From positions 1-37,138 of the forward strand of contig UYFQ01000686.1 of the NCBI GenBank assembly GCA_900617105.1: a stretch of DNA of 37,138 nucleotides, in the 5' to 3' direction. The DNA comes from Hydrurus foetidus (taxonomy: Eukaryota). Position 1 is the first letter of the stretch. Each line of letters begins with the position of its first letter. The translations under genes were made by a program, and so were the position numbers. Positions 1 through 32,704 of this stretch are shown here, in pieces. The notes under the pieces are model-generated. The model was not told where the DNA came from. It did no database searches and worked only from the letters and a program-made list of their open reading frames with translations.

Positions 1-3000
1 TAACGGTGCCACTATGTTGGAGTGGTTTGGTACGAAACCTCTATGGTGTAATCAAGCTCTTGTAGAGCCATAGACCATCTCCCTACCATCGAGTTAGGAG
101 AGGATTTCATGTACGTCAGATTTTTATGATCTGTATGAATCGTAAATTTGCGATCATGTAATAGTAGATCAAGTTTGGTACAACACAAGTAGATAGCATA
201 AGCTTCTTTCTGGATTGTTGACCAGTTCAACTGCGAGAAGGTGAGTGACTTACTTACAAATGAAATGGGTTTCATCTCATCTCCAACCTTTTGGAACAAT
301 ACACCGCCTACACCATAATCAGATGCGTCGGTGTATAAATGTATTGGTGATACATTGTCAATGAAGTGCATCAGGGGGCATTGAGAAATGGCCTGCCTAA
401 TGTCTTGAAACGCTTTAATGGTTTCAGCATTCCAGGTTACCCTGGAATGTTTATGAGTTTAGACACCGTCATTTTATGTAACGGTGCCACTATGTTGGAG
501 TGGTTTGGTACGAAACCTCTATGGTGTAATCAAGCTCTTGTAGAGCCATAGACCATCTCCCTACCATCGAGTTAGGAGAGGATTTCATGTACGTCAGATT
601 TTTATGATCTGTATGAATCGTAAATTTGCGATCATGTAATAGTAGATCAAGTTTGGTACAACACAAGTAGATAGCATAAGCTTCTTTCTGGATTGTTGAC
701 CAGTTCAACTGCGAGAAGGTGAGTGACTTACTTACAAATGAAATGGGTTTCATCTCATCTCCAACCTTTTGGAACAATACACCGCCTACACCATAATCAG
801 ATGCGTCGGTGTATAAATGTATTGGTGATACATTGTCAATGAAGTGCATCAGGGGCATTGAGAAATGGCCTGCCTAATGTCTTGAAACGCTTTAATGGTT
901 TCAGCATTCCAGGTTACCCTGGAATGTTTATGAGTTTAGACACCGTCATTTTATGTAACGGTGCCACTATGTTGGAGTGGTTTGGTACGAAACCTCTATG
1001 GTGTAATCAAGCTCTTGTAGAGCCATGACCATCTCCCTACCATCGAGTTAGGGGAGGATTTCATGTATGTCAGATTTTTATGATCTGTATGAATCGTAAA
1101 TTTGCGATCATGTAATAGTAGATCAAGTTTGGTACAACACAAGTAGATAGCATAAGCTTCTTTCTGGATTGTTGACCAGTTCAACTGCGAGAAGGTGAGT
1201 GACTTACTTACAAATGAAATGGGTTTCATCTCATCTCCAACCTTTTGGAACAATACACCGCCTACACCATAATCAGATGCGTCGGTGTATAAATGTATTG
1301 GTGATACATTGTCAATGAAGTGCATTAGGGGGCATTGAGAAATGGCCTGCCTAATGTCTTGAAACGCTTTAATGGTTTCAGCATTCCAGGTTACCCTGGA
1401 ATGTTTATGAGTTTAGACACCGTCATTTTATGTAACGGTGCCACTATGTTGGAGTGGTTTGGTACGAAACCTCTATGGTGTAATCAAGCTCTTGTAGAGC
1501 CATAGACCATCTCCCTACCATCGAGTTAGGGGAGGATTTCATGTACGTCAGATTTTTATGATCTGTATGAATCGTAAATTTGCGATCATGTAATAGTAGA
1601 TCAAGTTTGGTACAACACAAGTAGATAGCATAAGCTTCTTTCTGGATTGTTGACCAGTTCAACTGCGAGAAGGTGAGTGACTTACTTACAAATGAAATGG
1701 GTTTCATCTCATCTCCAACCTTTTGGAACAATACACCGCCTACACCATAATCAGATGCGTCGGTGTATAAATGTATTGGTGATACATTGTCAATGAAGTG
1801 CATCAGGGGGCATTGAGAAATGGCCTGCCTAATGTCTTGAAACGCTTTAATGGTTTCAGCATTCCAGGTTACTCTGGAATGTTTATGAGTTGTAGACACC
1901 GTCATTTTATGTAACGGTGCCACTATGTTGGAGTGGTTTGGTACGAAACCTCTATGGTGTAATCAAGCTCTTGTAGAGCCATAGACCATCTCCCTACCAT
2001 CGAGTTAGGGGAGGATTTCATGTATGTCAGATTTTTATGATCTGTATGAATCGTAAATTTGCGATCATGTAATAGTAGATCAAGTTTGGTACAACACAAG
2101 TAGATAGCATAAGCTTCTTTCTGGATTGTTGACCAGTTCAACTGCGAGAAGGTGAGTGACTTACTTACAAATGAAATGGGTTTCATCTCATCTCCAACCT
2201 TTTGGAACAATACACCGCCTACACCATAATCAGATGCGTCGGTGTATAAATGTATTGGTGATACATTGTCAATGAAGTGCATCAGGGGGCATTGAGAAAT
2301 GGCCTGCCTAATGTCTTGAAACGCTTTAATGGTTTCAGCATTCCAAGTTACCCTGGAATGTTTATGAGTTTAGACACCGTCATTTTATGTAACGGTGCCA
2401 CTATGTTGGAGTGGTTTGGTACGAAACCTCTATGGTGTAATTAAGCTCTTGTAGAGCCATAGACCATCTCCCTACCATCGAGTTAGGAGAGGATTTCATG
2501 TATGTCAGATTTTTATGATCTGTATGAATCGTAAATTTGCGATCATGTAATAGTAGATCAAGTTTGGTACAACACAAGTAGATAGCATAAGCTTCTTTCT
2601 GGATTGTTGACCAGTTCAACTGCGAGAAGGTGAGTGACTTACTTACAAATGAAATGGGTTTCATCTCATCTCCAACCTTTTGGAACAATACACCGCCTAC
2701 ACCATAATCAGATGCGTCGGTGTATAAATGTATTGGTGATACATTGTCAATGAAGTGCATCAGGGGGCATTGAGAAATGGCCTGCCTAATGTCTTGAAAC
2801 GCTTTAATGGTTTCAGCATTCCAAGTTACCCTGGAATGTTTATGAGTTTAGACACCGTCATTTTATGTAACGGTGCCACTATGTTGGAGTGGTTTGGTAC
2901 GAAACCTCTATGGTGTAATCAAGCTCTTGTAGAGCCATAGACCATCTCCCTACCATCGAGTTAGGAGAGGATTTCATGTACGTCAGATTTTTATGATCTG

Positions 3001-3867
3001 TATGAATCGTAAATTTGCGATCATGTAATAGTAGATCAAGTTTGGTACAACACAAGTAGATAGCATAAGCTTCTTTCTGGATTGTTGACCAGTTCAACTG
3101 CGAGAAGGTGAGTGACTTACTTACAAATGAAATGGGTTTCATCTCATCTCCAACCTTTTGGAACAATACACCGCCTACACCATAATCAGATGCGTCGGTG
3201 TATAAATGTATTGGTGATACATTGTCAATGAAGTGCATCAGGGGGCATTGAGAAATGGCCTGCCTAATGTCTTGAAACGCTTTAATGGTTTCAGCATTCC
3301 AAGTTACCCTGGAATGTTTATGAGTTTAGACACCGTCATTTTATGTAACGGTGCCACTATGTTGGAGTGGTTTGGTACGAAACCTCTATGGTGTAATCAA
3401 GCTCTTGTAGAGCCATAGACCATCTCCCTACCATCGAGTTAGGAGAGGATTTCATGTACGTCAGATTTTTATGATCTGTATGAATCGTAAATTTGCGATC
3501 ACGTAATAGTAGATCAAGTTTGGTACAACACAAGTAGATAGCATAAGCTTCTTTCTGGATTGTTGACCAGTTCAACTGTGAGAAGGTGAGTGACTTACTC
3601 ACAAATGAAATGGGTTTCATCTCATCTCCAACCTTTTGGAACAATACACCGCCTACACCATAATCAGATGCGTCGGTGTATAAATGTATTGGTGATACAT
3701 TGTCAATGAAGTGCATCAGGGGGCATTGAGAAATGGCCTGCCTAATGTCTTGAAACGCTTTAATGGTTTCAGCATTCCAGGTTACCCTGGAATGTTTATG
3801 AGTTGTAGACACCGTCATTTTATGTAACGGTGCCACTATGTTGGAGTGGTTTGGTACGAAACCTCTA
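1..3867 (-). repeat. Tandem array (8 full copies plus a 43-bp partial; continues off the left edge) of a 477-479 bp gypsy RT-connection/RNase H segment
   Basis: TAACGGTGCCACTATG recurs at 1, 479, 956, 1433, 1912, 2390, 2868, 3346 and 3825. Each unit encodes LYTDASDYGVGG...IQKEAYAI...HTDHKNL. Identity ends at 3867, where unique pol sequence resumes. Confidence 0.97.
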
Positions 3868-9096: not shown

Positions 9097-9235
9097 GGGC
9101 TTCGCCTCGTGCCGTTTGGATGAAAATCAAACAGTCGATTAGGCAAAACAAAATAAGTCAAGTGTGTTCTGGGCGGATGAATTAATCAATCCGTACAAAA
9201 TGAGCCGGGATTGGGAGACTTGCTCGACCAACCAC

Positions 9236-9770
9236 GAGAACGGCGTGGAAGACAAAGCTATCCACGGACGTCAATCAAGCCACGCTTGAAGCGAAATATG
9301 AGCAGAAGTTAACTGGGTCAACTCTGCACAATGGTATGGGATTGCCGAGATGAAACTCGAGCAACCACAAGACAGTCAAGTATCGGGAGATAAATCTCAA
9401 TCCGAGTGACTAAGAGAACGGCGTGGAAGACAAAGCTATCCACGGACGTCAATCAAGCAGAGCTTGAAGTGAGAGATGGGCAGAAGTTAACTGGGTTAAC
9501 TCTGCACAATGGTATGGGATTGCCGAGATGAAACTCGAGCAACCACAAGATAGTCAAGTATCGGGAGATAAATCTCAATCCGAGTGACTAAGAGAACGGC
9601 GTGGAAGACAAAGCTATCCACGGACGTCAAACAAGCAGAGCTTGGAGTGAGAAATGGGCAGAAGTTAACTGGGTTAACTCTGCACAATGGTATGGGATTG
9701 CCGAGATGAAACTCGAGCAACCACAAGATAGTCAAGTATCGGGAGATAAATCTCAATTCGAGTGACTAAG
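9236..9770. repeat. Three 178-bp tandem repeats in the G1 5' leader
   Basis: GAGAACGGCGTGGAAGACAAAGC starts at 9236, 9414 and 9592, with few substitutions between copies. Confidence 0.95.
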
Positions 9771-10291: not shown

Positions 10292-11897
10292 TTACGCCAT
10301 GTAACTACGGTATGACTCTGGAATAGGATATACAATTACTGGTAAATAGACTGGTTTCGCCATCGATCCTTTGGCAATTCTAGCTAGGTCAGTTACATAA
10401 TCATCAAAAATCATACGAATAGTCTCAACAAATGATGTCATTATAGGGTGTGAAGTTGGGAAGGAATCGTTCATTTTGCGGTTAAATCTTTCTAATGAAT
10501 TATTTTTTCTATTGATTAATGTAAATTCAGGATTTTCAGTAACAAAAGAATGCACATTCCACACTCTGGGATTGTATCTCACCATCCATGTGCTGATGAA
10601 ATAGCTCCAGAAAGAATTGAATTGGACCTGGTGTGAGGATTCATGAAATCCACAGCGGCAATATGGAATGCCTTTCGACAGAAAATCTTCGATGGGTATC
10701 ACTGTCAGAATATTCATCACTCTATCAGTCCCTATCAACATGCGGATGAGGTGTTTAGGAATATGAAAATCTACCGACTTTCTTTTGATCGCCTGCTTCC
10801 AGTGAAACAGGCACCCCACTGCCACTCCGGCGGGAAACTCAGCCTTCATGGATGACATAATCCCATGCTCGAAATCCGATGTGTACGTTGTCGCCTGCAT
10901 CTTCCCCTCACTCGACGAAGTGCACGCTTGCAACGCATGCCTGTAGGTCAATTCCTTTTTTTTCTGTAGTAGCATGTAATATACGGGCACGTACATTCCT
11001 GTACATACAAAATTTTAGGGGTGTTTTGCAATAATTAAAAAGAATCGTGTAAACATTATATGAAAATAATAAATGCATACAAAGAATACAACGTACAATA
11101 CGTCGTACCTACAGACCTGTTGCAGCCGTGTAAATCATTATGATGAAAAGCTGTTTGAATCCCTTTGGGACACAAGAGAACATACAGTCAACGAACATAG
11201 GGCACGCACTGTACTTCATCAGATGTATCAAATCAGGATGCCCCCATCCAATGATCATTTCAATTTCAGTAGCGGTTGTATAGTTGAGGAAGAATTTGAG
11301 GAATGACCTTACATCAGTAATGGAACATGACCGCATCGAACGCGCATGGATTTTTGATATCCAATCACCGAATTCCCTCGTCCTCACTTGGTATACATAC
11401 GCCAGTAGCTGCGGATGTAGTTATTTTTAACGACCGATAAGAAATAGAAATCCGCGTTATTCATTTGCATTGAAATACCTTAATATTTTTTTAGGGTGCA
11501 GTCAAATACGTGCTATGCAACATCGGTGGCGCTTTTCGTGGCGTCATCAATGTAGCTGTCGAGAATCATTTGCTTCGTGATTCTTTCAACTTCCACTTCT
11601 TTCGTTGTGCCCTTCTGAGAACAAGTATGGGCAATATTTCTTTCGACGATTGCTCCATGACACGTGGACTTTATTGAAACTTTACAAAAATGTGGTGCAC
11701 GGTAGCTAGGACGTTGGTAGAAGGCGTGTTCGCCTCTTGAAGCAGTACTCTTTTTTGAGTAACTAAACCCATCGAAGGATATTTTATTCTCAAAATTTAC
11801 CAGCGAACTCCGCTTTTTCTTCTCAGGAGTCGCCAGAAACGAGAAGTCGAGAGAGAGCTCATCCTCGACATTTTAGTCATCCACATCGCTGAACATT
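10292..11897 (-). pseudogene. Mutator/MULE DDE transposase, decayed, with a probable intron 10999..11116
   Basis: FVDCMFSCVP..FKQLFII, SDFEHG, GCLFHWKQAI (CxxH) and NNSLERFN are MULE motifs. A GT..AG intron joins ...ATG|MYVPV in frame. The upstream part has stops. Confidence 0.8.
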
Positions 11898-13641: not shown

Positions 13642-15207
13642 ATGGACGATGCAAGGGATAGAAACCTTGAGAATCATGATCCCGAAGAGGCAGCAGCAAA
13701 TGTTGGGCTGAGGAAACGAGTGATCAGCATGATCTGTGGAATTATTATCGTTATGAACTTGTTCATGATCAGTCAGAAACGGGAACCAATTCTACCGGAA
13801 TTCCTGACTCCGTTCATCAACGACCTTGCTGGGACAGTGAATTGTGACGACACTGATTGTGATGATGCAGTGTTTGCAGCAGCTGCAAAATTTCAGCAGA
13901 ATCTCTAGAATCGAATCATTGCAATTGACCTCTTTTGTATCGATCCTACTCGTAAGTCAGAGCAGTTATTTTGGGATACTTATCGCGGCCGCGAGTCCGA
14001 CTGGTACAAAGAGTATCGAATGTCGCATTCAACGTTTAATGGCATAGTGAGGGATTGCGTTCCACTTCTTTATTCCCGTCCAACTTATTCGTTGAAGTCT
14101 GCTAAATTCCGATACATCAGGAGCAAAGTAGTCATAGCTACTCTGGTTCGTTATCTGGCAGTGCAAAGCGACCAACATACTCTAGGAAAAGAATTTGGAG
14201 TTTGACAACCATGCGTCAGCTAAAGACTTGAACGAGCTTGTCAAGCGCTCCTCTCAGCATACTGGTTTCAGGGCTGTCCAAATCCCAAAATTGCATTTCC
14301 GTTAGAAGAGGGTCGCTGAGCTTCTGCGCGATGGTATCTTTCCAAATGTCAGATTTCATTCCTCTGCGGGTCCATCGATGGGAGTATCATTAAAATCTCT
14401 GCGCCACACTCTGATGCATATATTCCAAGAGAGTTCTCGTGCAAAAGGAAGCACTCATACTCGCTGAATTTGATGATTATCTGCGACCATAGAAAGCGTT
14501 TTATTTTTGCAGATTCTCGATGGCCTGGGTCAACATCAGATACTGGGGCGGTATCTCGATCAAGTTTTTTGACGAATCTGTTTGTGCGTAGGGATGCCAC
14601 CTTATTCCCCTATCCTTTTATGATACTGTCAGATGGTTCCACAAACGATCTTGCTTTACAGCTCCTGATTACCACGCAAGAAACAGATTAGAAAATTTGT
14701 TCAACAGGAATATCAGCCGTGCTCGGTGTGTCGTAGAGAATGCTTTTGGTCTACTCAAAATGAAGTGGAGGCGTCTGCATCAACACTCGATTGCAGAGAG
14801 CACACGATTGATTCCGCAGTTGGTTCTTTGCGCATGTATTTTGCACAATATTTGCATATATGCTGGCGATGTGAACGAAGTAGAAGATGGAGCTGTGCGA
14901 GATGTAGACGAAGCAGCTGCGGACAGAGTTGAAATCAATGCTGCATGTGGAAGAGTACTTCGTAATAACGGTAGGATTAAGTGCCTGATCTTCAAATTAT
15001 TTACTAAATTAATTTGCACATGCACATCATGCAGGTGTGCCATTCGCCCATAACGCTGCCAACCTTGTACAGGAATATCGCACAAAATTGGGAAGAATGT
15101 ATGATATGTGGGTTGATTTACGAGAGGGTGTTGTTGTTACACTAGAAGAGCTGAAAGTAATTTATGGACCTGCTGCTTACGCATACGATGATGAAGTTGA
15201 AATTTGA
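13642..15207 (+). pseudogene. Harbinger (HARBI1/DDE_Tnp_4-like) transposase with stops and frameshifts; probable intron 14971..15034
   Basis: GSIDG, YSLNLMIICDH, WPGSTSD, ILSDG and SRARCVVENAFGLLKMKWRRL. Splicing GT(14971)..AG(15034) extends the frame to TGA at 15205-15207. Confidence 0.88.
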
Positions 15208-16495: not shown

Positions 16496-16734
16496 TTGGA
16501 CGACACCTCCGCAAATTATTTGGGTGATGACGCAGCTTGAAATGTGAGTACTGCGATCAAATGATGTTTTACGAGGCAGTCTGTCCAACTCTTATTTTTA
16601 TCCTCGAATCCTTGCTTCTAAACTTTAGAAACAAGAGTTGGGAGAAGAGTACGTAAAAATCCTGTAAAAAGAGTGGGGAACGCTTTTATCCACTTTTTTA
16701 CGGTCACAACTCTTGTTTCTTGCGAGATAGAAAA

Positions 16735-17326
16735 GAGTGTTTGCGAAATCTCGTAAAAAAATAAACCGGATTTATCCCGGTTTTAAAAGAGGTCGTTTTT
16801 ATCCCGGTTTTATCCCGGTTTTTATCCCGGTTTTTATCCCGGATTTGTCCCGGCTTTTCAGGGTCGTTTTTTTTCAGATTCCATGAAAAATTGCTCGTGA
16901 AAAACAACAAATGCCCCTTTCATAGCAGAAGTCGTTTAACTGCACAACTTGTACAATAAACTGCCAAACAGTGTCTAATCAGTGGCTGCCTTCATCAACA
17001 GGGGCATTGCGGTTCTTTTGGGATGTTTTTCACTGCGAATGCTTACGAACTCTGATTGTGGCATACTTTCAAAATACCTCATATTCTACCGTATTAATCC
17101 CAACTGTGTCTATCATGGAGCACGATAAGCGGAGGACCATGAGGGACATGCCTGACAGTAGAAGGTATGAAGGACTGTCTGTCGACGACATTTTCATGTC
17201 TAAAACCTTCATTTTCGTTTTTTTTTTCATGGCTAAAAAAAGGGAAATCGCACGAGATTTGGTTCCAAGAAATTAACAGATTAAAAAAAACGGGTTTTAT
17301 TTTTTTACAAGATTTCGCAAACACTC
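16735..17326. mobile_element. Non-autonomous TIR element (592 bp), probably Harbinger-related
   Basis: GAGTGTTTGCGAAATCTCGTAAAAAAATAAACC (16735) is inverted at 17293-17326. Right flank is TAA, left flank AAA (imperfect TSD). Confidence 0.8.
16771..16853 (+). repeat. Subterminal TTTATCCCGG repeats (6 copies)
   Basis: Directly visible just inside the left TIR of the 16735..17326 element. Confidence 0.9.
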
Positions 17327-17329
17327 TAA

Positions 17330-17590
17330 GTGCATTCCTTGTGGGAGTGCAAAAACAAAGTACAAAATTGGAGTTTTTGTTGACTTTGTCTCGCTCTATC
17401 GTACCTTTGTGGTGACCAAAACAAAAAATAAAAATCCATTTTTTTGTTTTTCAACTTTGTCAGGTCCTTCCGAGACAAAAAAGACGTGAAAATTTGTCTG
17501 GCAAATCGTCGAGACAAAGTTGCGCCAAATATCACCAAAAAAAAAACCCAAGTTTTGTATTTTGTGCTTCGTCTCCCACAAGGAATGGCC
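17330..17590. mobile_element. Tourist-like (PIF/Harbinger) MITE, 261 bp
   Basis: TIRs GTGCATTCCTTGTGGGAG / CTCCCACAAGGAATGGCC (16/18); TAA on both sides (17327-29, 17591-93). Confidence 0.85.
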
Positions 17591-18373
17591 TAATAGGTTA
17601 GGGTCTGACCGATCCGACGTCCCCGCTTTTTCGACGTTTTAGTATGGGAGACCAAAATCAGTCAGTTATTTTCCGATTTTGTGAACATTCCTCGCTAACC
17701 ATAAAAGGGTTTTCAATTCATTGCATCGTCCGACTCTCAACGAGATACATCCAAAACAATACTAAAAACTGAAAACTAAAATGCGGTTTTTATTTCGGGT
17801 CCCTCCAAATGTCCAGATCATGCTATAGTTAACGAAAAAGAGCGATTTTAAAGGAGCCACTAAATTGACAGAAAGTGATTTTAATTATTGTACAGTGGGA
17901 GTCACCTATAAACGGAATAGTGTGAGTGGTGGAACCCAGAACTCCTAAAACTTTCGTATATGTTTTTTTAGTGCTTTTATCGCTCTGTTATCGTGTAAAG
18001 CAAGGTCATTTGACATTTCAACAGAGAGTTTTTTTTAAAATTCAATTCCAATGAGAAGTTGTAGTCGATTCAATTTGAGTGGGGACCAGAAAAATGGGAT
18101 TAGTATGGTGAGAAATCATGTAAGTACGTAAACGTTCTATGACATCATGTTATAATCGTCTTTAATAAGCTCAATAGCTTCGATGAATTCAGTAAACGTT
18201 TATTGTGTAATTCTCAGCACTATGCGGAATGTTTAGAACGTTCCAAGGTCCAAATTATTGAATTTTGGGGTCGAAGGTACCCGCCCTCCGAGGTGCAAAA
18301 GTAAAGTGTTCTATCTCACACACTGGTCTATTGTACACCTATATTTAAATAGCCATTTTAAATATTTATTGAC

Positions 18374-19113
18374 ATGCCGCGAAAGAAAAAGGCATTCCGC
18401 CAATTGGTATCTGCAAGAGTGAACGCGACAGCTGCAAAAATCGCAAGAAAGAACACTGATCATGCGCCTGATGTTGAATTTCTCGACAATATTTCATCGG
18501 ATGCTGCTAGTATCGTTGATGACAGAAACGAAGATGAGGAGATAGATTCATCCTTCTTCATTGATGGTATTCACTGGAGAATATTGCCAGATGAACCATG
18601 TGACTCTCAGCATAATGATGATGAAGACAGGATGAATAACGATCTCCAGGACGATCAAGTTGCTCTCAGATTGGAGTGGCGTGCCGTTGGTGATAATTTC
18701 GGATATCATGGGACAACTAGCTCCGTACGTGATCCTCATCCCAAGCAGTTGATGGAATCTATAACACAATTCAAGAGCTCTGTCGTTATCTACGACGGTC
18801 TAAAAAACTCTTCCTTCAGCGACAGATGAAGCTGTAGTGAAATCTCGAAGAGGTGCGCATATTGAAATTGACGCTTGGAGCGACAATGTTATAGCGATAT
18901 GCTATGTACAAAGCAAGACTCCAACGCTTGAATGCCGACCATGTTTACAGAAATACAGTTGAGTCATTCAAAGTGAAGCCAGTTTCGCTTCCAGAAGGAT
19001 GCCAAGGTAATATGACGAATGCATGCAATCCATTGCGAAAATTCCGGGCTGCTGGTCACTTTCGACAACTATTCTCATGGTCTCGCAAATCAGAGCTGGA
19101 TTCCCATGGTTGA
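18374..19113 (+). pseudogene. Probable N-terminal transposase remnant of the Tc1/mariner-like element
   Basis: ORF MPRKKK... (basic NLS-like start, acidic tract), followed by broken frames; position inside the TIRs. No catalytic domain visible. Confidence 0.4.
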
Positions 19114-19568
19114 TTTCTCGTTGCCAACACTCCTAATCGCAAATCTCTTGTCTTCAATCATCGGTGCGGACACAAGGAACACCACCCATCGAAACATATC
19201 TTCACAGGAAATCGAGATTTAAGATGCCATGCCGTCAACGATGCAATCATACTGATTACCGTCAACCGTCAACTATTGATTGCAGCCAACTATTGATCGC
19301 TGAGTCATGAGGCTTTTTCTACCGCTGAACTTTGGAGATCAGCGCCTTTTGAATTGCTTGGCGTGACGTAGCTTCTTGATGATCTAAGATTCTGTAGAGT
19401 TACACCGTTATATCTGACTCCGTAGATCCCATCTCTGCGCATTAGATTGCCGAACTGATGTAAGAAATCTGAATTGAAGTTGTCTGCATTAAACTTGTGT
19501 CCTCTTCGAATGCGTTTGGTCATGCCTTAGTCTGGGACCGCCATCTTTTGACGACAGAGAATTCTCTA

Positions 19569-19649
19569 CTTCGAACCCGCACGTGCTTCCATCCAGAAAC
19601 AGCTCTGCAGCTTGAGGCCTAAGCGCTCTACCAAGTGAGCTTCCCAGGA
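19569..19649 (-). other. tRNA-like sequence (pol III A and B boxes); SINE head or tRNA pseudogene
   Basis: Minus strand TCCTGGGAAGCTCACTTGGTAGAGCG (D-arm GCTC/GAGC, A box) ... GCGGGTTCGAAG (B box); the 3' T-stem and acceptor stem are missing. Confidence 0.6.
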
Positions 19650-20078
19650 ACTGAGATTTTCCGAGAAATCAGCCAACAGAGAGATCTAGCCTATCGTTGT
19701 AGGGCTCACAGCTCACAGCAAGACTGCTCGTGACAGTGGTATATGTACTGTACACATGTCACGTACTTACGGCTGAACGCACGTACGTCTGTACTCGGTT
19801 TTATCTAGGACAACTTTAACCGGAAAAGATGGAACTATTCCGTTTATAGGTGACTCCCACTGTAAGATAATGGCACTATATGATCTACACGCATACAAAA
19901 CAGTGAAAAAAATCTATATTTTATATTTTGCATGTATACAGCATGAAAAAGGTTCCGACGTTTTGGGGCCCTGATTTCGTTGTTTTGGGATTTTGAAACG
20001 TCGGATCGGTCAGACCCTATATTGTGGTTTCACTTTTGATTGGCAGCACTCCCCCCCCAGCGAGTTGTGAAAAACACT

Positions 20079-21257
20079 GCGCGCCATCAGGGAACTCAAC
20101 TCAGCACCCAAAATTTGACTAATTCGGGGGTCTAATTTCGTTTTTTTTCTAGAATCTGACCCAGGGACCAAGATTTTTTGCAAATAGACCCCCCTGGTCG
20201 GTAAATTTTGGGTGCCGAGTTGAGTTCGCGACCGAAATAACGGGCAGCTAAAATCTAGAAAATCCAACTTTTTCTATGGAATTACAACTACTTCCTGGGA
20301 AATGGCACTTTAACTAACATAGGTGGCACTTTATTTTTTCTGCCACTATAAAAATAGAATCAACACTTTAATACAGAAAAAAACACTTTACTCTAGAAAG
20401 ATCAGCTTTTTCTAAGAATCCACAGCTAAAATTTTGAGATTCTCACAGAAAGAATCACTCGCAACCACTATTTTTGACATCCACCAACTTTGTCATTTGA
20501 GATACCACCCAAATCAGTGCAGTACCTGATAATTCGAAGTTTTTTTTACTACAGTAGTTTCACCGCTTCCATCCCAAATTTAAAAAAATGGACGACACAG
20601 ATGCTATCGACGAAGAAATCACTGTTGTCGAAGCCGTTCGGATGGTCTCAACTGGCAGAGAAATCAGACATTTAGTACCGGTAATATTTTCAACATCTTA
20701 GATTGCACTCATTAATGCAGAATGTAACGAGTTAATTATCTGCCTCAAACAGTTGCCCAGGTCAACGAATTCGTCGAGGAGATGAGGCTCTCTCACTACA
20801 GGATGAATCACAATATCGGAGTGAGAGTTACATACCTCAAGTGCTCAGTAGTAGGGTGTCCGCACATCTGCAGATTGCTTGAGAATCTGACGCACGCTGT
20901 TCCTCCATTCGAGGTAGAGACCACTGCAGACTGCAATCACAACCATCAGGTTGAAGTCCCACGTGAGCGTGGGCTAACAGTCCCTCAAAAAGATATCATG
21001 ACGCTTTGAATAGAGCGAGGCCAGGCAGCACCAAAGAAAGTGTGATACTTTATTAAAGTGCTGATTATTCGGTAAAGTTGAGATTCTACCAAAATAGCTG
21101 CGATTCCGTAAAAATAGTTGCATAATATTAAAAATAGTTGCCACTTGTCTAATAGTGGCAATTCCATGAAAAAAGTGGTGATTCCATAAAAAAAGTGGTC
21201 CATTCCAGATTTTAGTTGCGCATTATATTTACCCGGTTGAGTTCCCTGATGGCGTGC
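20079..21257. mobile_element. Nested TIR element (about 1.18 kb) carrying a truncated WRKY/FLYWCH-like gene; superfamily uncertain
   Basis: GCGCGCCATCAGGGAACTCAAC (20079-20100) is inverted at 21236-21257 (21/22). No clean TSD (CTG/CTA at best). Confidence 0.8.
20588..21009 (+). pseudogene. Truncated transposase N-terminus with a WRKY/FLYWCH-like zinc finger; probable intron 20681..20760
   Basis: YLKCSVVGCP...HNH (C-X4-C...H-X-H). A GT..AG intron joins the ATG-20588 exon in frame to ORF 20782..21009. Confidence 0.55.
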
Positions 21258-21687
21258 TAGTAACCGAGATGTTTTTCGAGACCATAAAACCGAGATGTTT
21301 TTCGTACCGAGGGCGAAGCCCGAGGTTCGAAATACTTCGAGGTTTATGGTTGAGTGTACGAACGTTACTTTTTATTCCGATGGGTTCATAAAGACCCGTT
21401 TCGGTCCTGCGGGTCGAAAAGGAATCCTTTTCGCACCTCCGGTGCGAAAAGGATTACTTTTCGACCCGCGCGTGAAAACGGTGAAATTTGGCCGGAAGCT
21501 CATGACCGGAAAAGGGTCTTTATGAACCCTGAGGGATAAAAAGTGTTTTTCACAACTCGCTGGGGGGGATCTGCTGCCAATTAAAAGCTGCGTAGGAGCA
21601 AAGGATATTTTGAGAAACCCTAGACCCTAGATAGGGACCCTTGCCAGCATCCGATCCTAGACCCTAGATAGGGTGCCCGTCTAGGGT

Positions 21688-22694: not shown

Positions 22695-22934
22695 AAATTT
22701 ATTAACTGCTCAACGCATTGATGTGTACTGCTCACTGCTCGCTGCTAGATGACTAACTTTTAACTTCTAACTTGTGATGGTGACCTCAGGAATCAGGGAA
22801 CCGGGATAGTCCCGGTTCCCTAGGACCACCCGGTTCCCTAGATAGGGCCCTATCTAGGGAACATCTGAAAACCTTAGATAGGGCCCTAGCCCTTTGCTCC
22901 TACGCAGATTAAAAGTGAAACCACAATATATATA

Positions 22935-23251
22935 TGTTGGGATTCCTCAACTTCCGGATGCTTTGTGGCGCGTGTGACCAGTGACCCAATGCTCGTAAAA
23001 TAGACTTGTATTGCGTAATTACTTGATAATTAAACTTGTGCACCGGCATCAATCAAGACGGCAACGAAGCTTTATATATCAAGACAATTGCACGTTTTCA
23101 TCCATGTTGAAGACAGACGAATGGGTGGCTCCATGAGCCCACATATCTAACGGTCAGCGGTACTTACCCTCAGGGCGCACACCGCTGTCCGTCAGGATCC
23201 ATGCATACACTATACAACTACAGCAGTGTCTTTTCTCCGGATACTTTAACA
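22935..23251 (-). repeat. Copia 3' LTR
   Basis: Direct repeat of 28223..28539 with 5 differences by manual comparison. Confidence 0.95.
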
Positions 23252-23382
23252 CACCCAACAGGCACGCAGTAGTTGAAGCACCCGGGCACGCATCGGATCT
23301 TCATGTCAGCAATAGAATAAATGTGAATTGATTTGCAAGCAGTAATATCTAACTAAATAATGTCGTGTGGTCTCAGGCGTCT

Positions 23383-25401
23383 TCATTTCTCTGCTTTGTC
23401 GGTAGCCCATCCTGTGAGCCCGTCTCTCTCTCTGCGGAACTGAGATCCTTGGAGCGGCTTTGTCAGCACGTTGGCGTACATGTCCTCGCTGCGCAGGTAC
23501 TGCACCCGCACTTCCCCGGTGTCCACTCGCTCTTTGACCCAGAAGTATCGGATTTGTATGTGGCGTGTGCGCTCCGCTCCCGATCTGCCGCGTTCCACTA
23601 ACGCCATGCAGGACTGGTTGTCCTGGTATATGATGACCGGCTCCATCTTGTAACCCTGTGCGATTAGAAATGTACGGATAAAAATGCTCTGATTGGTGGA
23701 ATCAGATAGGCCGACCAGCTCAGCCTCTGTACTCGACTTTGTCACAATTAGCTGCTTCGATGATCTACAGTGCACCGCTCCGATGTCCCCGATCACTACG
23801 CAGCTCCCTGTGTGGGACCGTCCGTCAGTGTGCACCCCGTATGACGCATCCACAAAAAGCCGCACTACTATACCACTGTCGCCTGGTCGCAGCACTACGC
23901 CGCTGTCCCTTGTCGCGTGGATGTATCTCACGAGTCGCTGGAGCTTGTCCACGTCATCTGCTGTGCACTTGTTCACCCGTGTGGACAGGAAAGCCACTGC
24001 GACTAGGCACTCTGGTTTGGTGCGCTTGGCCAGGTATAGGATCATGGCTACGACTTTGTGGAACCATACCCTCACTGGCTCCGCCACCGCTGCTGCATCC
24101 TCCCTAGTCTCGAACAGTCCGTCTGTGGCGGGTGACCTCGCCGTCCCCTTCACCCCTGATGTTCTGACGATCTCGTCGCAATATCCCGTAGTTGTGATCA
24201 TCGCCGTTCCTGGTATGTGCATATCTATTGCCATGCCGAGATAATTTATAAGAGGTCCATGTGACAATGTAATCGAACCGTACCTCTTGCGCAGTCCGTC
24301 GACTAGGTGGGACATGGATCCCTTGCTGTTGCTTGTTATTAACAAGTCGTCGACGTGTACTGCAACAGTGCACTGGTGCCCGTCCGGGCCCGTTCGGTTG
24401 AATACGCATCTATCACATATATTCCGTGTGTACCCCAATCCCAGCATGGTGGCGTACAGATTCTCGTACCACAGACCGGAGCTCTCGACGCACCCGTATA
24501 GTGCTTTTTTCAGGTGTACCGTCACTCCGCCTCTTGCGTCTGTGTACTTACCGTACTTCGGGTCGATGTCTATGATGAGGTCAGTCATGGTGCGATCCAG
24601 TCGCATGTGTACTGGCACCTCCAGTGACATGTCCGCGTTCAGGTACGCCCCGCTGATGTCGACTACTGCAACTCGGCGCTTCTCATGTGCTGCAACTGCC
24701 AGCAAGGTGAACACAGCGCTGGTCGACACGGTTGGAGATGATAAATCCTCGTATAAGCTCTTATCCTGTTGGTCGCCTCCTGCGACCAGTCTGGCTTTGA
24801 GCTTGTGAAAGCTCCCATCTGGATTGTTCTTCTGCTTCAAGAACATGGAGGACCTGATTGTTGTTGCTCTCTGCATCGCTGACAACTTGCCTCCCATAAC
24901 AGGCGCCCATACTCTCTTGTCTAACATCTGCTTCAGCTCTGATACGATGACACTCTTGGCCTCGTCACCTCTCGTGCGGAGTGCCTCTCTAACACTGATG
25001 TTAGCGGTGTTGCTCTTGCTCAGTTCCTCCCTGTGGCGCTTCATCACTTCTTCAACGTGGTGCGTTGGTACTACTGTGCTCGCAGCTGCTTCGCCTTCGG
25101 CCGTTACGAATGCCCCCTCGTTGGTGTGAGACGACCGAGTCGTCATCCTCTCAGTCGGTGCTGGTACCCTGCGCTGCTCTCTAAGCGGTGGGTGCAATGG
25201 TTGCACTGCTGGTTCTGTGTCAGGTACGGGTGCATCGCCGGAAATGTCGCTTGGGATTGTCGGTTCGTACAGGGGTGTTGGTGGTGGTGATGGTGTAGGC
25301 ACGTTCCGTTCGTGCACCCCGACTGTCTCGTATTCCGAGATTCTCATTTCTTCTTGAGCTACTGTCGTGTCGGCTGATACTAGCACCCCCCCTCCCCACA
25401 T
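23383..25401 (-). CDS. pol: Copia pol: RT and RNase H (separated from integrase by a frameshift near the C-run at about 25390)
   Basis: KARLVAGG, DISGAYL, LKKALYG, HVDDLL; DASYG, SSTEAELVG, QDNQS. Confidence 0.95.
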   Translation of the reverse strand: MWGGGVLVSADTTVAQEEMRISEYETVGVHERNVPTPSPPPTPLYEPTIPSDISGDAPVPDTEPAVQPLHPPLREQRRVPAPTERMTTRSSHTNEGAFVTAEGEAAASTVVPTHHVEEVMKRHREELSKSNTANISVREALRTRGDEAKSVIVSELKQMLDKRVWAPVMGGKLSAMQRATTIRSSMFLKQKNNPDGSFHKLKARLVAGGDQQDKSLYEDLSSPTVSTSAVFTLLAVAAHEKRRVAVVDISGAYLNADMSLEVPVHMRLDRTMTDLIIDIDPKYGKYTDARGGVTVHLKKALYGCVESSGLWYENLYATMLGLGYTRNICDRCVFNRTGPDGHQCTVAVHVDDLLITSNSKGSMSHLVDGLRKRYGSITLSHGPLINYLGMAIDMHIPGTAMITTTGYCDEIVRTSGVKGTARSPATDGLFETREDAAAVAEPVRVWFHKVVAMILYLAKRTKPECLVAVAFLSTRVNKCTADDVDKLQRLVRYIHATRDSGVVLRPGDSGIVVRLFVDASYGVHTDGRSHTGSCVVIGDIGAVHCRSSKQLIVTKSSTEAELVGLSDSTNQSIFIRTFLIAQGYKMEPVIIYQDNQSCMALVERGRSGAERTRHIQIRYFWVKERVDTGEVRVQYLRSEDMYANVLTKPLQGSQFRRERDGLTGWATDKAEK

Positions 25402-26992
25402 CAGGGAGGGTAGTCTCGAGGATGATGTCGGCAGAGGGTAGGTCGGTGAGGGTTGGTTGGTTGTACACCGCTACTTCGTCGGCAGGTGCATCCTGAGTGG
25501 GGGGGTTGGTATTGAAGGTTGGCAGGTTAGATTTGTCGAGGCTGTTGGCAAAGAGCAATTCATCAAACACATGTAGTTTGGTTTGGGTGATTTTCTTCCC
25601 TTCTCTAAGCGCCATCGCGTTCAAAGTCATAATGACTGACTGAGGCATCGGCAGTATCTTGAACTGGTCCCGAGTGACGATCCTGCCGGTTGCAAGCGAA
25701 AGCATCTTGAATGATCCAGTCCTGTTTTGTGTTGGTAGCATGACAATGCAATCTTCAGTACGCGATGTCATAGTATTGTCAGTGTTTGGTACTGTACAGA
25801 CTGCATAATCCCCGAATGCGGCGCGGAAGTCCAGGTTCCCATCAACCCGCCGTCCTGAGAAGAGCTCCCTTGGGGAGAGACCCCCTGGCCTCGATCCTGA
25901 CTGCTGGCAGTTGATACGTGAGACGCAGTATAGGGCTAGGTAGGTTAAACATAATTCATTCGGAGTGAATGGCAATCTACCGCAGATGTGAGCACGTGCT
26001 CTCTCCTTCACCATCTGGATACGCCGCTCAATTCTTGCAACATGACCTCCTGCTGCGCTCACGTCCACCTCAATCCCTAGGGCCATCAAATCCACCCTCA
26101 TTTTCCCGATGGCACCTTCTCCGTCAGACATGATGACATGCACTAGAAAGTTCCTAGATTTCAAGATGGATATCATCTCGCACAGTGCCGGCTTTACAAC
26201 TGCCGCTGCACGCGAGGTCTTTGCAGTGTCGAGTCGGATGAGGCTCACGGCGAGTGTCATGTCCAAAGGGGTTGAGACTGCAATGAGTATCGCTGTTGAC
26301 TCCAGGTACATGATGTCAACGCTCAGGACCTGCTGCTGTTGTGCTGGTGCAGGTGTTAGAGAGATGTCCGCTGTAGGTGAGGGTTTCTTGTGAGTCTTGC
26401 CTCGTAGGCTGGCCAAGCATTTACCCCAGATAGTGTGAGCGTTTCTGAAGTCGGCCTCCGAGACGCTGAAGTTATTCCCACCGCGTATCATCGCGATCGC
26501 CATCTCTACTGGCGGGTACCCCATACGAGCTAGCAGTTCCCTAGCAGCTGTGGCCGACGCGATCTCGCGTTTCGTGAACTTCCCCATGTTCTCACTGACC
26601 GTTGCTACCATAGCCTGTTCGGTGTATTGACGCGGTTGCTTCTGACCAGCCATACCTCTCACGTCGCACACATAGAATCGACCCGTTGAGCCTGGCAGGT
26701 TCTGCCTGCTGAAGCTGTATGCTGCTTTACTGCCTGCCGGTCGCAGGATGAAGCATCCATTCTCCTGATTGTAGCTAAGGTCAGCGCCTCTATCCGCCAT
26801 AGCTGCGAACGACAATATGTTAGCCGTAGCCCTGGGGCTATAGTAGACTGGCCCGATCTCCCCGAAGTCACCTTCTTGGTCGACTCTGACACTCTCTGCT
26901 TCTCGTTGAACTCCGTTCAAGAGGATTGACTGCTGTGATTTCCGGATATCTGTCAGGAGGCTCGAATTGCAAAATATGCTGACGGATGCCTG
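25220..26992 (-). CDS. pol: Copia pol: protease C-terminal part and integrase
   Basis: NILSF (protease), LSVDIM, SDGEG, IERRIQMVKER (DDE); in frame with gag across a single TAA. Confidence 0.9.
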   Translation of the reverse strand, partial: QASVSIFCNSSLLTDIRKSQQSILLNGVQREAESVRVDQEGDFGEIGPVYYSPRATANILSFAAMADRGADLSYNQENGCFILRPAGSKAAYSFSRQNLPGSTGRFYVCDVRGMAGQKQPRQYTEQAMVATVSENMGKFTKREIASATAARELLARMGYPPVEMAIAMIRGGNNFSVSEADFRNAHTIWGKCLASLRGKTHKKPSPTADISLTPAPAQQQQVLSVDIMYLESTAILIAVSTPLDMTLAVSLIRLDTAKTSRAAAVVKPALCEMISILKSRNFLVHVIMSDGEGAIGKMRVDLMALGIEVDVSAAGGHVARIERRIQMVKERARAHICGRLPFTPNELCLTYLALYCVSRINCQQSGSRPGGLSPRELFSGRRVDGNLDFRAAFGDYAVCTVPNTDNTMTSRTEDCIVMLPTQNRTGSFKMLSLATGRIVTRDQFKILPMPQSVIMTLNAMALREGKKITQTKLHVFDELLFANSLDKSNLPTFNTNPPTQDAPADEVAVYNQPTLTDLPSADIILETTLPDVGRGGASISRHDSSSRRNENLGIRDSRGARTERAYTITTTNTPVRTDNPKRHFRRCTRT

Positions 26993-28195
26993 TTAGTCCA
27001 GTAGTACGTGGCTTCGAGTGAAGAGGACGGTTTCGTTCGTAGTGACGAAGGCCGCCTCGACACTCTCATCGTCGTCTTCGAGTTGGTCTTCTATGGCGGT
27101 GAGCAGCGCTTGCTCGCCGACCTTTCGTTCTTCGCAATCTTTCGCGTAGTGGCCAGTCTGTCCGCATACGAAGCAGATCACTGATGATGATTTCTTCTTC
27201 GATGCAGCTGTCTTGCCTGTCGATCCTTTTCCTGGGACTTTTTCCTTTGTTCTCGGCAAAGTGTCGGTGAGGAATGCGGAATGTTGTTCGGCTCCGAGGG
27301 GGACACCCCCGCCGGCGTTCGTCCAAGATGACGCTACCCTGTATGCTCCGGCTAAGGTGGAAGGGTAACTGTTTGGTAGGTTTTGCACAGCGTTATTCCG
27401 CATAAAAGTCAACATACCGGTATACCTTTTTGGGTCTAACTTACTGAGGAAGTCGATAGCTCTTATCGGTTCTTCCACTTCAGTCATGCCGACACCCCTG
27501 TTGGCTAATACCTGGTTATCAAATCGCGTTTTGAAGTCGCCGATTACCTCACGTTCACCCTGTCTGAGGTAGTTGTACCTCAGTGTTTGTTCGTGGACGT
27601 TCACTGCTCTCATTGAGTCGTCTTCACCATAGATGTGGGTTAGATGGCTTCTGCGGATGAACTCCCATAGTTGCACACTGTCGAGTCTGAGGCGGCATGC
27701 CTCGAAGCCTGGCTCCTCTCGAACCTTGGACTTGGACCCAGTCGACATCCTCGACCACATGAGTGGAAATAGCTTTTGCTCGTCGATTTTCTGGGCCTCG
27801 ACTGCCTTACGGCGTCCCTCAAACGCGCCAGCCCGCAGCTTGTCGATGAGCGCCTCAGAGTACACGGCAGGAGCTTCTGGAGGAAGCTGTGGCCCGATCA
27901 TGACATTTTCAGGGTCTACGGATTCGTCCTCATCTTCCTCCCCGTCTTCATTTTCGATACCCGCTGTCGTGGTATCGGTATCCACCGTTTGAAAGGTGGG
28001 GTTGTAATCCTCCTCACGAGGGTACGGATGGACGTATCTCTTGTTGGTGCTGAAGAACATGCCGGTCATACCGTACAGGCCACATGCCTCGTTCTGCATG
28101 TCTTCCTTCCATTGCACCACGTTGTTTTGGCGTCCGATTTTCAGCATGCAGTGCTCTGCACCTGATTTCGGTTCTTCTTGTTTCTTCGGCGGCAT
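26993..28195 (-). CDS. gag: Copia gag with zinc knuckle; ends at an in-frame TAA inside the protease motif (LLD*QAS)
   Basis: LRQGEREVIGDF; CFVCGQTGHYAKDC. Confidence 0.92.
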   Translation of the reverse strand: MPPKKQEEPKSGAEHCMLKIGRQNNVVQWKEDMQNEACGLYGMTGMFFSTNKRYVHPYPREEDYNPTFQTVDTDTTTAGIENEDGEEDEDESVDPENVMIGPQLPPEAPAVYSEALIDKLRAGAFEGRRKAVEAQKIDEQKLFPLMWSRMSTGSKSKVREEPGFEACRLRLDSVQLWEFIRRSHLTHIYGEDDSMRAVNVHEQTLRYNYLRQGEREVIGDFKTRFDNQVLANRGVGMTEVEEPIRAIDFLSKLDPKRYTGMLTFMRNNAVQNLPNSYPSTLAGAYRVASSWTNAGGGVPLGAEQHSAFLTDTLPRTKEKVPGKGSTGKTAASKKKSSSVICFVCGQTGHYAKDCEERKVGEQALLTAIEDQLEDDDESVEAAFVTTNETVLFTRSHVLLD

Positions 28196-28212
28196 CTCTT
28201 ATGCGCTGATCT

Positions 28213-28223
28213 AGTTTAATTAT
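28213..28223 (-). other. Copia PBS position, complementary to LTR 28314..28324 (candidate self-priming site)
   Basis: + strand AGTTTAATTAT (28213-23) is the exact reverse complement of ATAATTAAACT (28314-24); no TGG PBS. Confidence 0.7.
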
Positions 28224-28539
28224 GTTGGGATTCCTCAACTTCCGGATGCTTTGTGGCGCGTGTGACCAGTGACCCAATGCTCGTAAAATAGACTTGTATT
28301 GCGTAATTACTTGATAATTAAACTTGTGCACCGGCATCAATCAAGACGGCAACGAAGCTTTATATATCAAGACAATTGCACGTTTTCATCCATGTTGAAG
28401 ACAGACGAATGGGTGGCTCCATGAGTCCACACATCTAACGGTCAGCGGTACTTACCCTCAGGGCGCACACCGCTGTCCGTCAGGATCCATGCATACACTA
28501 TACAACTACAGCAGTGTCTTTTCTCCGGATACTCCGACA
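28223..28539 (-). repeat. Copia 5' LTR with candidate TATA box (TATATAAA, 28366..28359)
   Basis: Direct repeat of 22935..23251; the gag ATG lies 28 nt downstream. Confidence 0.95.
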
Positions 28540-28677
28540 ATATATAGGTCCAATTATGCTTGATACAAAACTACTGCGCACAGTAATTATGCATGATATA
28601 AAACAACTGATCACAGCACACTGGCATCTTAACAAGTTCGACCGCATACGCTGAGACTACCACTGAGACGACCACCA

Positions 28678-30324
28678 ATGGTGAAGTTCGTTCCGGTAAC
28701 TGACGTCGAGAGGCCAAAAGCAGCCCAGAACCTGAACACGTCAGCGAATGATAAGCATAGGAGGTTCGACAATCCTCATTCTGTGGGGAAAACTGTCGAT
28801 CGAGGATGGCAGCAGGGAAATGTAGGCTGGGGTGTTCTCGGCGCCTTCGGGAATTTGGATAAGGATGATGCAGCACAGGTCATCAAGCGTGCTGAAGGAG
28901 TCAACAAAATGGTGAAAAACGAAAAAGGTCTCTGGGTTAAGGTCAAAAGTACACATACCGACGCAGTTTCTGCAACGAGCTCGAGCCGAGGTCGTGGAGG
29001 AGGTATCAGCGTCCTTGATTCCCTTGGATGTAATTCCAATTCTTCGTACGATAAACAACACTCCGAGGACGATGGGATGACAATAGAATCAAGGGGTAGA
29101 TCTGACGATAGGTTCAGAGATAAATCTGGGGAGAGATATCAAAGTAAACGTAGTGAAACGGTGTGTAACAGAAGCAAAAGTAGGAGTAGAAGCAGAAGCA
29201 ACAGCAGCAGCAACTATCGGAACAGATGCAATCGTCGGAGGAGCAGGAGCACGGAGAGGAGATCACGTCGCTCAGATCACCGAAGGAGTGATAGGCATAG
29301 ACGAGAGCGACACGACAGGTGTTCCTCCCGATCGCGATCGAAATCGTCTTCTGTATCTCGAACGCGTCACAGGAAGAGTGATGGATCTAGACGCGACAAT
29401 GACCATCGGTCGCACCTTCCCTCTGGCGGCAGGAAGCGAGACCGCTCCAGCTCTAGTCATACCGACAGAAACAGAAGACGCAGCAACGATCGGTACAATG
29501 AAAGCAATAGAGACAGCGACAGAAATCTTAAAAGCGAGAGGAGGCCTAATGAGAGCTCGAGCAGTTCCTCAGGGACTGATATCACTGAGGGGAACAAGAC
29601 CAGCAGATCGAACACCGAGAAGGACGATGAGTTGCGAGATCCACCTTCTCCTGAAACAGAAGAGGAGCACGTTTTTGAGTTCTCTGCCACTCAGCTAGCT
29701 AATCGTTTCCTCGAAGTCTTCTCAGGGCTTGGGCTGAACTTGACGAAGAGATCGAATACAGAAGATGAAGAAGAGGAGTCAGGCAACAGACGTCTCGATG
29801 CTATCGCTGATCTCCTCTCTGAAAACTCACAAGTGCTCAGCCTCAAGAGCGGCAAAGTGATGCTGAGCGGGAAGAGCTCTATCCGATCCAGCTTCACACG
29901 TACGTCACCGGAGGAGTCGAGGTGCTCCCACCGTGTCGTTCTGAACATCCCTCAAGACACGGTCAGCAGTGACACCTATTCCATCAGTGAGAACGCACCT
30001 AAAGGGAGCGTTAGTTACTGCCTCGACTTCCACGCCCCCTTCACTTCACCCGGACTGGGAGACCGAACAAAGGATACCGCCCTCCTATACCGCTGTGTGG
30101 GGTCCCTGCTGACGCACATATGGGGGGCAGTCGACCCGGACAAGTTCTCTACCGCATGGTCCGTGAAACAGTCCACATCTTCGAAGGAAGCTGTTCTGGA
30201 CACGAAATGTTGGGCTTGGGCTACTGCGATGGTCTCGAAGGAATTTCCGTCCTTTACAGACCTTGTTACTGATAGCGAAGTAGTGATATTCCACGACTAC
30301 AATACTATTGAATCCTGGGGCTGA
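28678..30324 (+). CDS. Host gene: Arg/Ser-rich protein (548 aa) with a globular C-terminal domain, possibly NTF2/SnoaL-like
   Basis: Long intact ATG-initiated ORF; central RS dipeptide region; non-repetitive C-terminus. Confidence 0.75.
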   Translation: MVKFVPVTDVERPKAAQNLNTSANDKHRRFDNPHSVGKTVDRGWQQGNVGWGVLGAFGNLDKDDAAQVIKRAEGVNKMVKNEKGLWVKVKSTHTDAVSATSSSRGRGGGISVLDSLGCNSNSSYDKQHSEDDGMTIESRGRSDDRFRDKSGERYQSKRSETVCNRSKSRSRSRSNSSSNYRNRCNRRRSRSTERRSRRSDHRRSDRHRRERHDRCSSRSRSKSSSVSRTRHRKSDGSRRDNDHRSHLPSGGRKRDRSSSSHTDRNRRRSNDRYNESNRDSDRNLKSERRPNESSSSSSGTDITEGNKTSRSNTEKDDELRDPPSPETEEEHVFEFSATQLANRFLEVFSGLGLNLTKRSNTEDEEEESGNRRLDAIADLLSENSQVLSLKSGKVMLSGKSSIRSSFTRTSPEESRCSHRVVLNIPQDTVSSDTYSISENAPKGSVSYCLDFHAPFTSPGLGDRTKDTALLYRCVGSLLTHIWGAVDPDKFSTAWSVKQSTSSKEAVLDTKCWAWATAMVSKEFPSFTDLVTDSEVVIFHDYNTIESWG

Positions 30325-30440: not shown

Positions 30441-31495
30441 CTATTCCAAGAGTTTCGGTATAGCCCGGATAAGTCTTCCTAACTTTTCTGACAACTGAAT
30501 CATAGCATCTTGCACGACCTCTTTCGCGTACAAGGCCCCTGTGGTCTCCACTGTGAATGTGAATCGGTCAGGAGAGTGCCGCACCTCGACTGCTAATTTG
30601 TCCTCTGGAGACCTTCTGAAATCTTCCAACGTGTAGATGCACTCCTTGCAGAATATGCACGCAGAAGAATCTGTTATAACAACTGCACCGGAGTTCTCTT
30701 CCATTGCGAACACCTCTGTGGGGCAGCAATCTACTAACGTCGCCTTCTGTTCTTCTGTATATTGATCCAAACTACAAAATTGGCAACAATCCAATATGAA
30801 TGATGTAAGACAAATCAGGAGACTCAGGCATGTGCAGTTCTCTTCAAAAGAACAGAATTTCCAATTCAAAATACTTACATTTCGTCGTTAAGTTTTACTA
30901 TTGGGTCATACTTCAGCGCAACTGTAGCGACAGGGGACCACTTCGCATGTTCCTTTCCGATGCCCTTTATCGCAATGGCTTCAAACTTGATGCGCTGGCC
31001 GGGGCCTAACTTAATAATCACAATACCTTTGTCATGCGATGTTACTTCCTCATTCTCATCGCAAAAATGCACCGGTTGTACGTTGTCATTGTGGCTAATA
31101 AGATCCTGAGACGTTACGTTGATAGCCAGTCCGAGAGGATGATCAGCTAATTTCTCCACCATTGTATTATAGTCGCAATCTAAAGAGAATCTGACAGAAC
31201 AGGCATTGCAGTTTCCGTCACCAATGCAGTCACAGGCATGTATGTAATTCCAGTCTTTCATGGGTTTTCTGGACCGAAGAGGTATGAGTCCCAAACGATG
31301 GGCGATAAATTCGTCTTGCAAAGCGGAGTTATTATCCTCGAATTCGACTTTGTCGATACACATTGTTGGAACCTCTGCAATCATTATCCTTCTTAGGGAA
31401 TTTGCCATGCTGACATCTGTTTCTGTGAGTTCGAAGATCGCCAAGTCTTTCTTCAATTCGAGTATTTTGATGTTTGGAAGTCGACTGTTGGGCAT
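30441..31495 (-). CDS. RPB3: RNA polymerase II subunit RPB3; exons 31495..30879 and 30771..30441, intron 30772..30878 (315 aa)
   Basis: ANSLRRIMIAEVPT, DEFIAHRLGLIPL, zinc motif CDC...CNAC, KGIGKEHAKWSP, FTFTVETTGAL. GTAAGT..TAG intron restores the frame. Confidence 0.93.
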
Positions 31496-31683: not shown

Positions 31684-31970
31684 TAGAGCTTGTGGCCGGT
31701 GCCTTGGCCGGTGCCTTGGCCGGCCGGCCTGGCACCGGCCACATCTGCACCTACCATATTAGGGGTAAATTTACCGAAATATAGGGTGACTTTCTAGAAT
31801 TTTAGGGGTAGCTCACAAAATTTTCGTACTTTTGGGGGGTTATTTCACGGTTTTGGGTATTTGACTCCCTTACACGGTTTAAATCATTGGCCGGCCGGCC
31901 AACAGGCCAATGGCAGAAAGTTTAGGCCGGCCAGGCCGAAGCCTGATTTGGTCGTCGGCCACAAGCTCTA
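31684..31970. mobile_element. hAT-like MITE (287 bp) upstream of RPB3
   Basis: Perfect 15-bp TIR TAGAGCTTGTGGCCG (31684-98 / 31956-70); GGCCGG-rich subterminal repeats; TSD not clean. Confidence 0.8.
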
Positions 31971-32419: not shown

Positions 32420-32692
32420 TGTAGCCTAGCACGTACGTTCACCGTACGCTTCGTATACGTTTGTATATATTCACGTATGTATATAATTCACGCACCCATA
32501 GTCTATTTTCATCCACATCAACTGTCCACCGGTAACGGACGCTCATCAGCATCAGCACCCTTGTAGCCTATCGTTTGTGTCTGTTGTTAGCTGCTTGCTC
32601 GCTTCTTTCACAAACTGTAACTAACCTAACAGTTTACTCCAGCATACCGTCTTTACCCGGATTCTTCGTACTCGAATCCGGCCGCGACTACA
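32420..32692 (+). repeat. Candidate 5' LTR of gypsy element G2 (273 bp)
   Basis: TGTAGCC...GACTACA termini (same style as the LTR at 21688..21952); TATA-like motifs at about 32464-32486; 100 bp upstream of the gag ATG. Confidence 0.72.
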
Positions 32693-32704
32693 ATATTAAT
32701 ATTG
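32691..32704 (+). other. Perfect palindrome at the G2 PBS position
   Basis: CAATATTAATATTG; the 12-bp core AATATTAATATT starts at the LTR terminal A. No TGG PBS. Confidence 0.72.

Follow-up and report, generated by a model that had tools for sequence, protein, structure and literature searches.

We identified, on contig UYFQ01000686.1 of the Hydrurus foetidus assembly, a Ty1/copia retrotransposon that likely primes reverse transcription with approximately the first ten bases of its own RNA, a reading drawn from sequence comparison to which we give a probability of about 0.85. The element lies on the minus strand of the window, by which we mean the whole stretch of DNA that was analysed (37,138 nt). 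Self-priming of this copia had been proposed in an earlier note, made from the letters of the window, and is now well supported by the conservation of both pairing arms among copies of the family and by their covariation in related families.

Structure of the element

The reverse transcriptase (RT) of the element matches Pfam RVT_2, and its gag carries a CCHC zinc knuckle. Comparison of the repeats identified a 5' LTR of 317 nt (28223..28539, minus strand, TG...CA) and a 3' LTR of the same length (22935..23251, minus strand), which form a direct repeat with five differences and are flanked by a 5-bp target site duplication, TATAT, at 28540..28544 and 22930-22934. The LTR end at 28223 was set independently of the complement described below, from the pair of LTR copies together with the TATAT duplication. 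Three of the LTR mismatches are adjacent, at U3 positions 4-6 (28536-28534 against 23248-23246), with only two others in the pair; this three-base block possibly reflects a template switch.

Open reading frames and Pfam matches place gag, with its CCHC knuckle, at 26993..28195 (minus strand), terminating at an in-frame TAA within the protease motif, a position through which the relatives read. The protease and integrase region follows at 25220..26992 (minus strand); a Pfam search of these positions returned no match, and the D,D,E residues of the integrase were assigned by eye. The coding region is closed by the RT (Pfam RVT_2) and RNase H (23383..25470, minus strand; open reading frames and Pfam), in a frame that differs from that of the integrase. 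A short, polypurine-tract-like GGGTG (23252..23256, minus strand) precedes the 3' LTR, and the ends of relatives are similar. This copy is young yet defective, given the TAA in the protease motif and the frame change between RT and integrase, and would therefore need proteins supplied in trans.

In the Atlas, the clusters closest to the RT (3-4 members each) are eukaryotic and, where the phylum is known, diatom most often, and from these diatom-type neighbours the label 'CoDi-like' is plausible for this copia. The element resembles the diatom CoDi elements (CoDiI, CoDiII and CoDi6) in its diatom-type copia RT and its TG..CA LTRs, and we take its RT motifs to resemble those of CoDiII. DNA of the element was found in one organism and in freshwater, sediment and air metagenomes.

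Complementarity between the primer site and the LTR

We predict a primer-binding site of 10 nt (28213..28222, minus strand) that abuts the LTR and is not tRNA-like, and a self-primer of 10 nt inside the LTR (28315..28324, minus strand), with a possible eleventh pair between 28314 (minus strand) and the LTR-terminal A. The sequences ATAATTAAACT (minus strand, 28223..28213) and AGTTTAATTAT (minus strand, 28324..28314) are exact complements at the places where the earlier note had reported a perfect 11-nt match, and the downstream arm comprises the LTR-terminal A and the next 10 nt, which is where a primer must bind. The claimed absence of a TGG primer-binding site was likewise borne out: the 7 nt that follow the LTR contain no TGG. 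An anticodon-loop-like (half-tRNA) motif, sought as a generic pattern and not from the tRNAs of the host, was absent from the primer site, and no tRNA genes were found in the window.

Under a mononucleotide model, the expected number of occurrences in the LTR is 4.6e-4 for this 10-mer and 1.2e-4 for the 11-mer. The complement was also significant against 1000 dinucleotide shuffles in which any nearby CA was allowed as the LTR end (p<=0.004). Each pair of the arm helix has a pairing probability of 0.81-1.0 in predicted folds from four start points, while the 5' region overall is no better folded than shuffled sequence (z -0.06 to -0.92). Beside the primer site, the predictions show a U5 hairpin, with sites at 28237-28241 that vary among copies, and an Rfam search gave a single sub-threshold match, which we take as chance.

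Conservation of the arms within the family

We investigated variation within the family by aligning contigs from four runs to positions 28185-28385 at 80% likeness. A total of 35 substitutions were listed, including one at 28334 and those at 22 of the 72 loop sites (28231-28302). In this contig table, which can miss sites (the change at 28363 is missing from it), no substitution is listed in either arm, a significant difference from the variable loop (Fisher p=0.0014; upstream arm alone against the loop, p=0.03). One contig of run X1 carries G at +1 after the LTR, within the downstream arm. Insertions and deletions occur at 28199-28212, beginning directly past the primer site. The upstream arm sits within a wider block of 31 nt (28303-28333) that has no listed substitution, so conservation of this arm may be owed in part to the promoter.

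Covariation across related copia families

We identified 1262 relatives of the RT-RNase H at E<=1e-40 among the 7992 sequences scored. Relatives for the junction comparison were drawn from lake metagenomes (13 loci) and from eukaryotic contigs within prokaryote MAGs; viral contigs were also scanned for relatives and gave no match. The prokaryote MAGs G001-G005 are rich in copia contigs, with 65 matches in G001, indicating that they carry eukaryotic repeat DNA. From a pool of 73 fetched loci (L014-L086) and the 13 metagenome loci, only readable LTR-to-gag junctions, chosen by hand, were used, and loci with too little upstream DNA (e.g. L001, L006, L009, L015 and L026) or duplicating a family (L005) were left out. 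We tested 11 relatives and L004, together with 11 control copias. The twelve regions tested comprised the window element, L002, L003, L008, L012, L016, L021, L023, L028, L029, L033 and L047; L012 belongs to the same family as L008, and the addition of L004 brings the number of different site sequences to twelve. The identity of the relatives to the window element over RT-RNase H is 26-48%.

Among the relatives, most are collapsed metagenome contigs with a single LTR, in which the LTR end was placed by inference, and with the ends so placed a perfect complement of 9-15 nt begins right after the CA in all twelve regions (p 0.001-0.022 against shuffles). The longest inverted repeat begins at the CA in 12/12 regions even when the CA is not required. 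For L004, the LTR end is set by two LTR copies, and the complement is 15 nt long.

The letters of the site differ between families, and each site mirrors its own LTR. In L047, whose gag is 39% identical and whose R region can be aligned, one A-U pair is swapped for G-C and one pair is lost, on both arms. Two swapped pairs distinguish L003 from L008, L002 has one additional pair present in both arms, and L023, which is richer in G+C than the window element, has a complement of 15 nt. Conservation of the complementarity in sister families had been named in advance as a check on self-priming; it was kept in 12/12 junctions, with changed letters and compensatory swaps. Neither TGG nor the half-tRNA loop pattern was found by the pattern test at any of 11 sites, and L004 also lacks them, as judged by eye. 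A single tRNA could not match all twelve sites, which differ from one another and each mirror the LTR of their own element.

Nine of the 11 control copias were non-significant for the complement, the other two being L042 (8 nt, p=0.047) and L076 (10 nt, p=0.006), and several controls have TGG or half-tRNA-like sites as judged by eye. In an RT-RNase H tree (FastTree, 32 rows, with long branches and no named references), ten self-complementary rows fall inside one clade of 16 rows with SH-like support of 98 and no tRNA-type row, yet L033, with its 11-nt complement, is placed outside this clade on a long branch. L033 (11 nt) and L076 (10 nt) both have self-complements at a CA and both lie outside the clade; they may represent further self-priming lineages, or chance.

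Proposed mechanism, RNA start and primer length

Under the proposed mechanism, transcription would start at 28324 or one base before, and the 5' end of the RNA would fold back across a loop of about 92 nt and pair with 28222-28213. The RNase H of the element would then cut after base 10 (in Tf1, after base 11), and the RT would copy U5-R, beginning at the terminal A.

A TATA-type box had been noted upstream of the partner. We did find TATATAAA at 28366..28359 (minus strand), 35-42 nt upstream, but it is peculiar to this copy, the family reading TATGTAAA at 28359..28366: the T>C substitution at 28363 accounts for 142778 of the 143171 depth in X1 and for all depth in X2, X8 and X11. We accordingly rejected the box as evidence for the RNA start, since nearly all other copies lack it.

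The 5' edge of the partner offers a different guide, as it coincides with a Y|A step in 7/12 junctions and lies within 1 nt of one in 10/12, an enrichment with p about 0.01 when kin are merged and a rate of 0.16 is assumed. In the window copy, the partner begins one base past a C|A step. A partner edge at or near such an initiator-like step points to a predicted RNA start at 28325 or 28324.

As to the length of the primer, the 11 nt first suggested (the terminal A plus 10) did not survive the comparison. An eleventh pair with the LTR-terminal A is present in only 4/12 junctions, and a primer that covered this A would prevent its being copied; we therefore dropped the 11-mer, and the primer is probably 10 nt long.

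Alternative readings of the duplex

It is unlikely, in our judgement, that the duplex is real and its partner is something other than the 5' end of the RNA, so that the primer would be cleaved out of a longer leader, or be supplied by the 3' copy of R or by the second RNA of a dimer. Such an arrangement would fit the presence of the partner 11-mer in both LTRs, the lack of conservation of the TATA box, and a distance between partner and site that ranges from 62 to about 244 nt across junctions; against it stands the 5' edge of the partner, which in 10/12 junctions is no more than 1 nt from an initiator-like Y|A step.

The helix might alternatively be structural, serving in packaging, in dimerisation or in blocking 5' polyadenylation, with a host tRNA or tRNA fragment as the primer. 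Copia elements with half-tRNA primers and without TGG do exist, as described in PMC6317226 and PMC5445492. We consider this reading very improbable here, as the twelve different sites change in step with their own LTRs, as neither TGG nor the loop pattern is found at the sites, and as the helix would occupy the sole place available to a primer.

Finally, a chance complement within A+T-rich sequence is barely credible and is already largely refuted by covariation: the arms are A+T-rich and the whole-region fold is no better than shuffles, but the complement has p<=0.004 here and is repeated in all testable relatives, including L047 and the G+C-richer L023 with its 15 nt.

Other elements and features of the window

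The window additionally contains two gypsy elements, G1 and G2 (RVT_1), each with one LTR in the window, where the LTR ends cannot be fixed. At plausible LTR ends within the window, neither element has TGG after the CA or an anchored perfect complement of at least 9 nt. These results do not confirm the earlier note's view that all three LTR elements are tRNA-independent. In G1, TGGCGACTC at 9083-9075 (minus strand), some 8 nt away from the closest CA, presumably resembles a tRNA-Arg primer site and may be coding. A perfect 14-nt palindrome (32691-32704) follows a possible LTR end of G2 and recalls the CHSeq1 of the fungal GalEa elements.

At positions 1-3867, a 478-bp piece from the RT-RNase H region of G1 is repeated eight times head to tail with 99-100% identity, the product either of tandem amplification in the recent past or of an error in assembly. 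Three tandem copies of 178 bp (9231-9770) lie upstream of the G1 gag, probably within its LTR or leader. We also observed MITE-like elements with terminal inverted repeats (31684-31970 and 16734-21587), fragments of MULE and DDE transposases (10292-11014 and 14592-15053), and a host gene for an Rpb3-type RNA polymerase subunit with an apparent intron (30441-31495, minus strand). An open frame of 563 codons without a Pfam match (28633-30324, plus strand) begins some 95 nt from the copia's 5' LTR and points away from it.

Relation to known self-priming systems

To our knowledge, gypsy elements are the only ones in which self-primed reverse transcription has been demonstrated; in copia it has only been predicted, for one plant lineage. 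The primer letters of the window copia seem to us to resemble those of the Tf1 primer; this is probably a coincidence, because the letters differ in sister families. Tf1 and Tf2 of Schizosaccharomyces pombe, Tj1 and the Tf1/sushi group share with our element a primer site that is complementary to part of the 5' LTR and a similar primer length, but the Tf1/sushi elements are Ty3/gypsy chromoviruses, whereas the present element is a copia, with RVT_2 and not RVT_1. In Tf1, the RNA's initial 11 bases anneal to the site, and RNase H cleaves between bases 11 and 12 (PMC7175516). In this copia, both the start of the RNA and the cut are predictions from sequence, and the Tf1 duplex of 11 bases compares with 9-15 nt in the copia clade. 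The priming structure of Tf1 has been described as a 'pretzel' of three duplexes (10.1101/2022.12.06.519325); as a counterpart of its flanking helices, the copia has only the predicted U5 hairpin, with sites that vary between copies.

The closest precedent among copia elements is the TAR lineage of plant Ty1/copia (Houba, Osr-1), in which self-priming was predicted for 89% of 203 elements, on the criterion of a complement to the 5' LTR of at least 10 nt starting 0-5 nt after the LTR (PMC6317226). By that definition the window copia scores as self-priming, with 10 nt at offset 0. The prior art given in the earlier note was correct as to the demonstration in gypsy, and the plant copia predictions, as given in the available part of PMC6317226, are broader than it had stated. 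TAR elements are likewise copia with predicted self-priming, but belong to land plants, whereas the Atlas neighbours of the present RT are eukaryotic and, among those of known phylum, diatom most often.

A second comparison is with fungal GalEa, also a copia that lacks a tRNA site and carries a self-complementary motif immediately past its LTR. According to the available part of PMC5445492, the partner of its Conserved Hairpin Site lies 12-41 nt downstream, and no complement was found in the LTR; the partner in the window copia lies upstream of the site, inside the LTR. The primer site of one relative, L021, overlaps a 12-nt palindrome, recalling the palindromic CHSeq1 of GalEa. For the CoDi elements, the words 'tRNA' and 'primer binding' are absent from the main text of PMC2806351 in its available part. 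A literature search, conducted outside subscription journals and the entries of Repbase and GyDB, found no description of self-priming for copia elements of diatoms or stramenopiles. Self-priming as a mode is already known, proven in Tf1 and predicted in TAR; from the sequence comparisons, the diatom-type copia clade is likely a new setting for it.

Implications

The compensatory changes over twelve different primer sequences constitute strong comparative evidence for self-priming in a protist copia clade, and since the RNA start and the cut are each predicted to the single base, the proposal is directly testable. Annotation tools that demand a tRNA site would miss such elements.

We lean somewhat towards a broader view, in which a large, deep-branching protist copia clade would be wholly tRNA-independent and would use a copia-type RNase H to cut its own capped 5' end, having either acquired this mode apart from Tf1 and TAR or retained an ancient state of hairpin priming that predates tRNA priming. 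Hairpin priming before tRNA priming is an order of events that has been proposed (PMC3601003). The finding bears on whether tRNA priming is ancestral among LTR elements, and on the escape of these elements from tRNA-based control.
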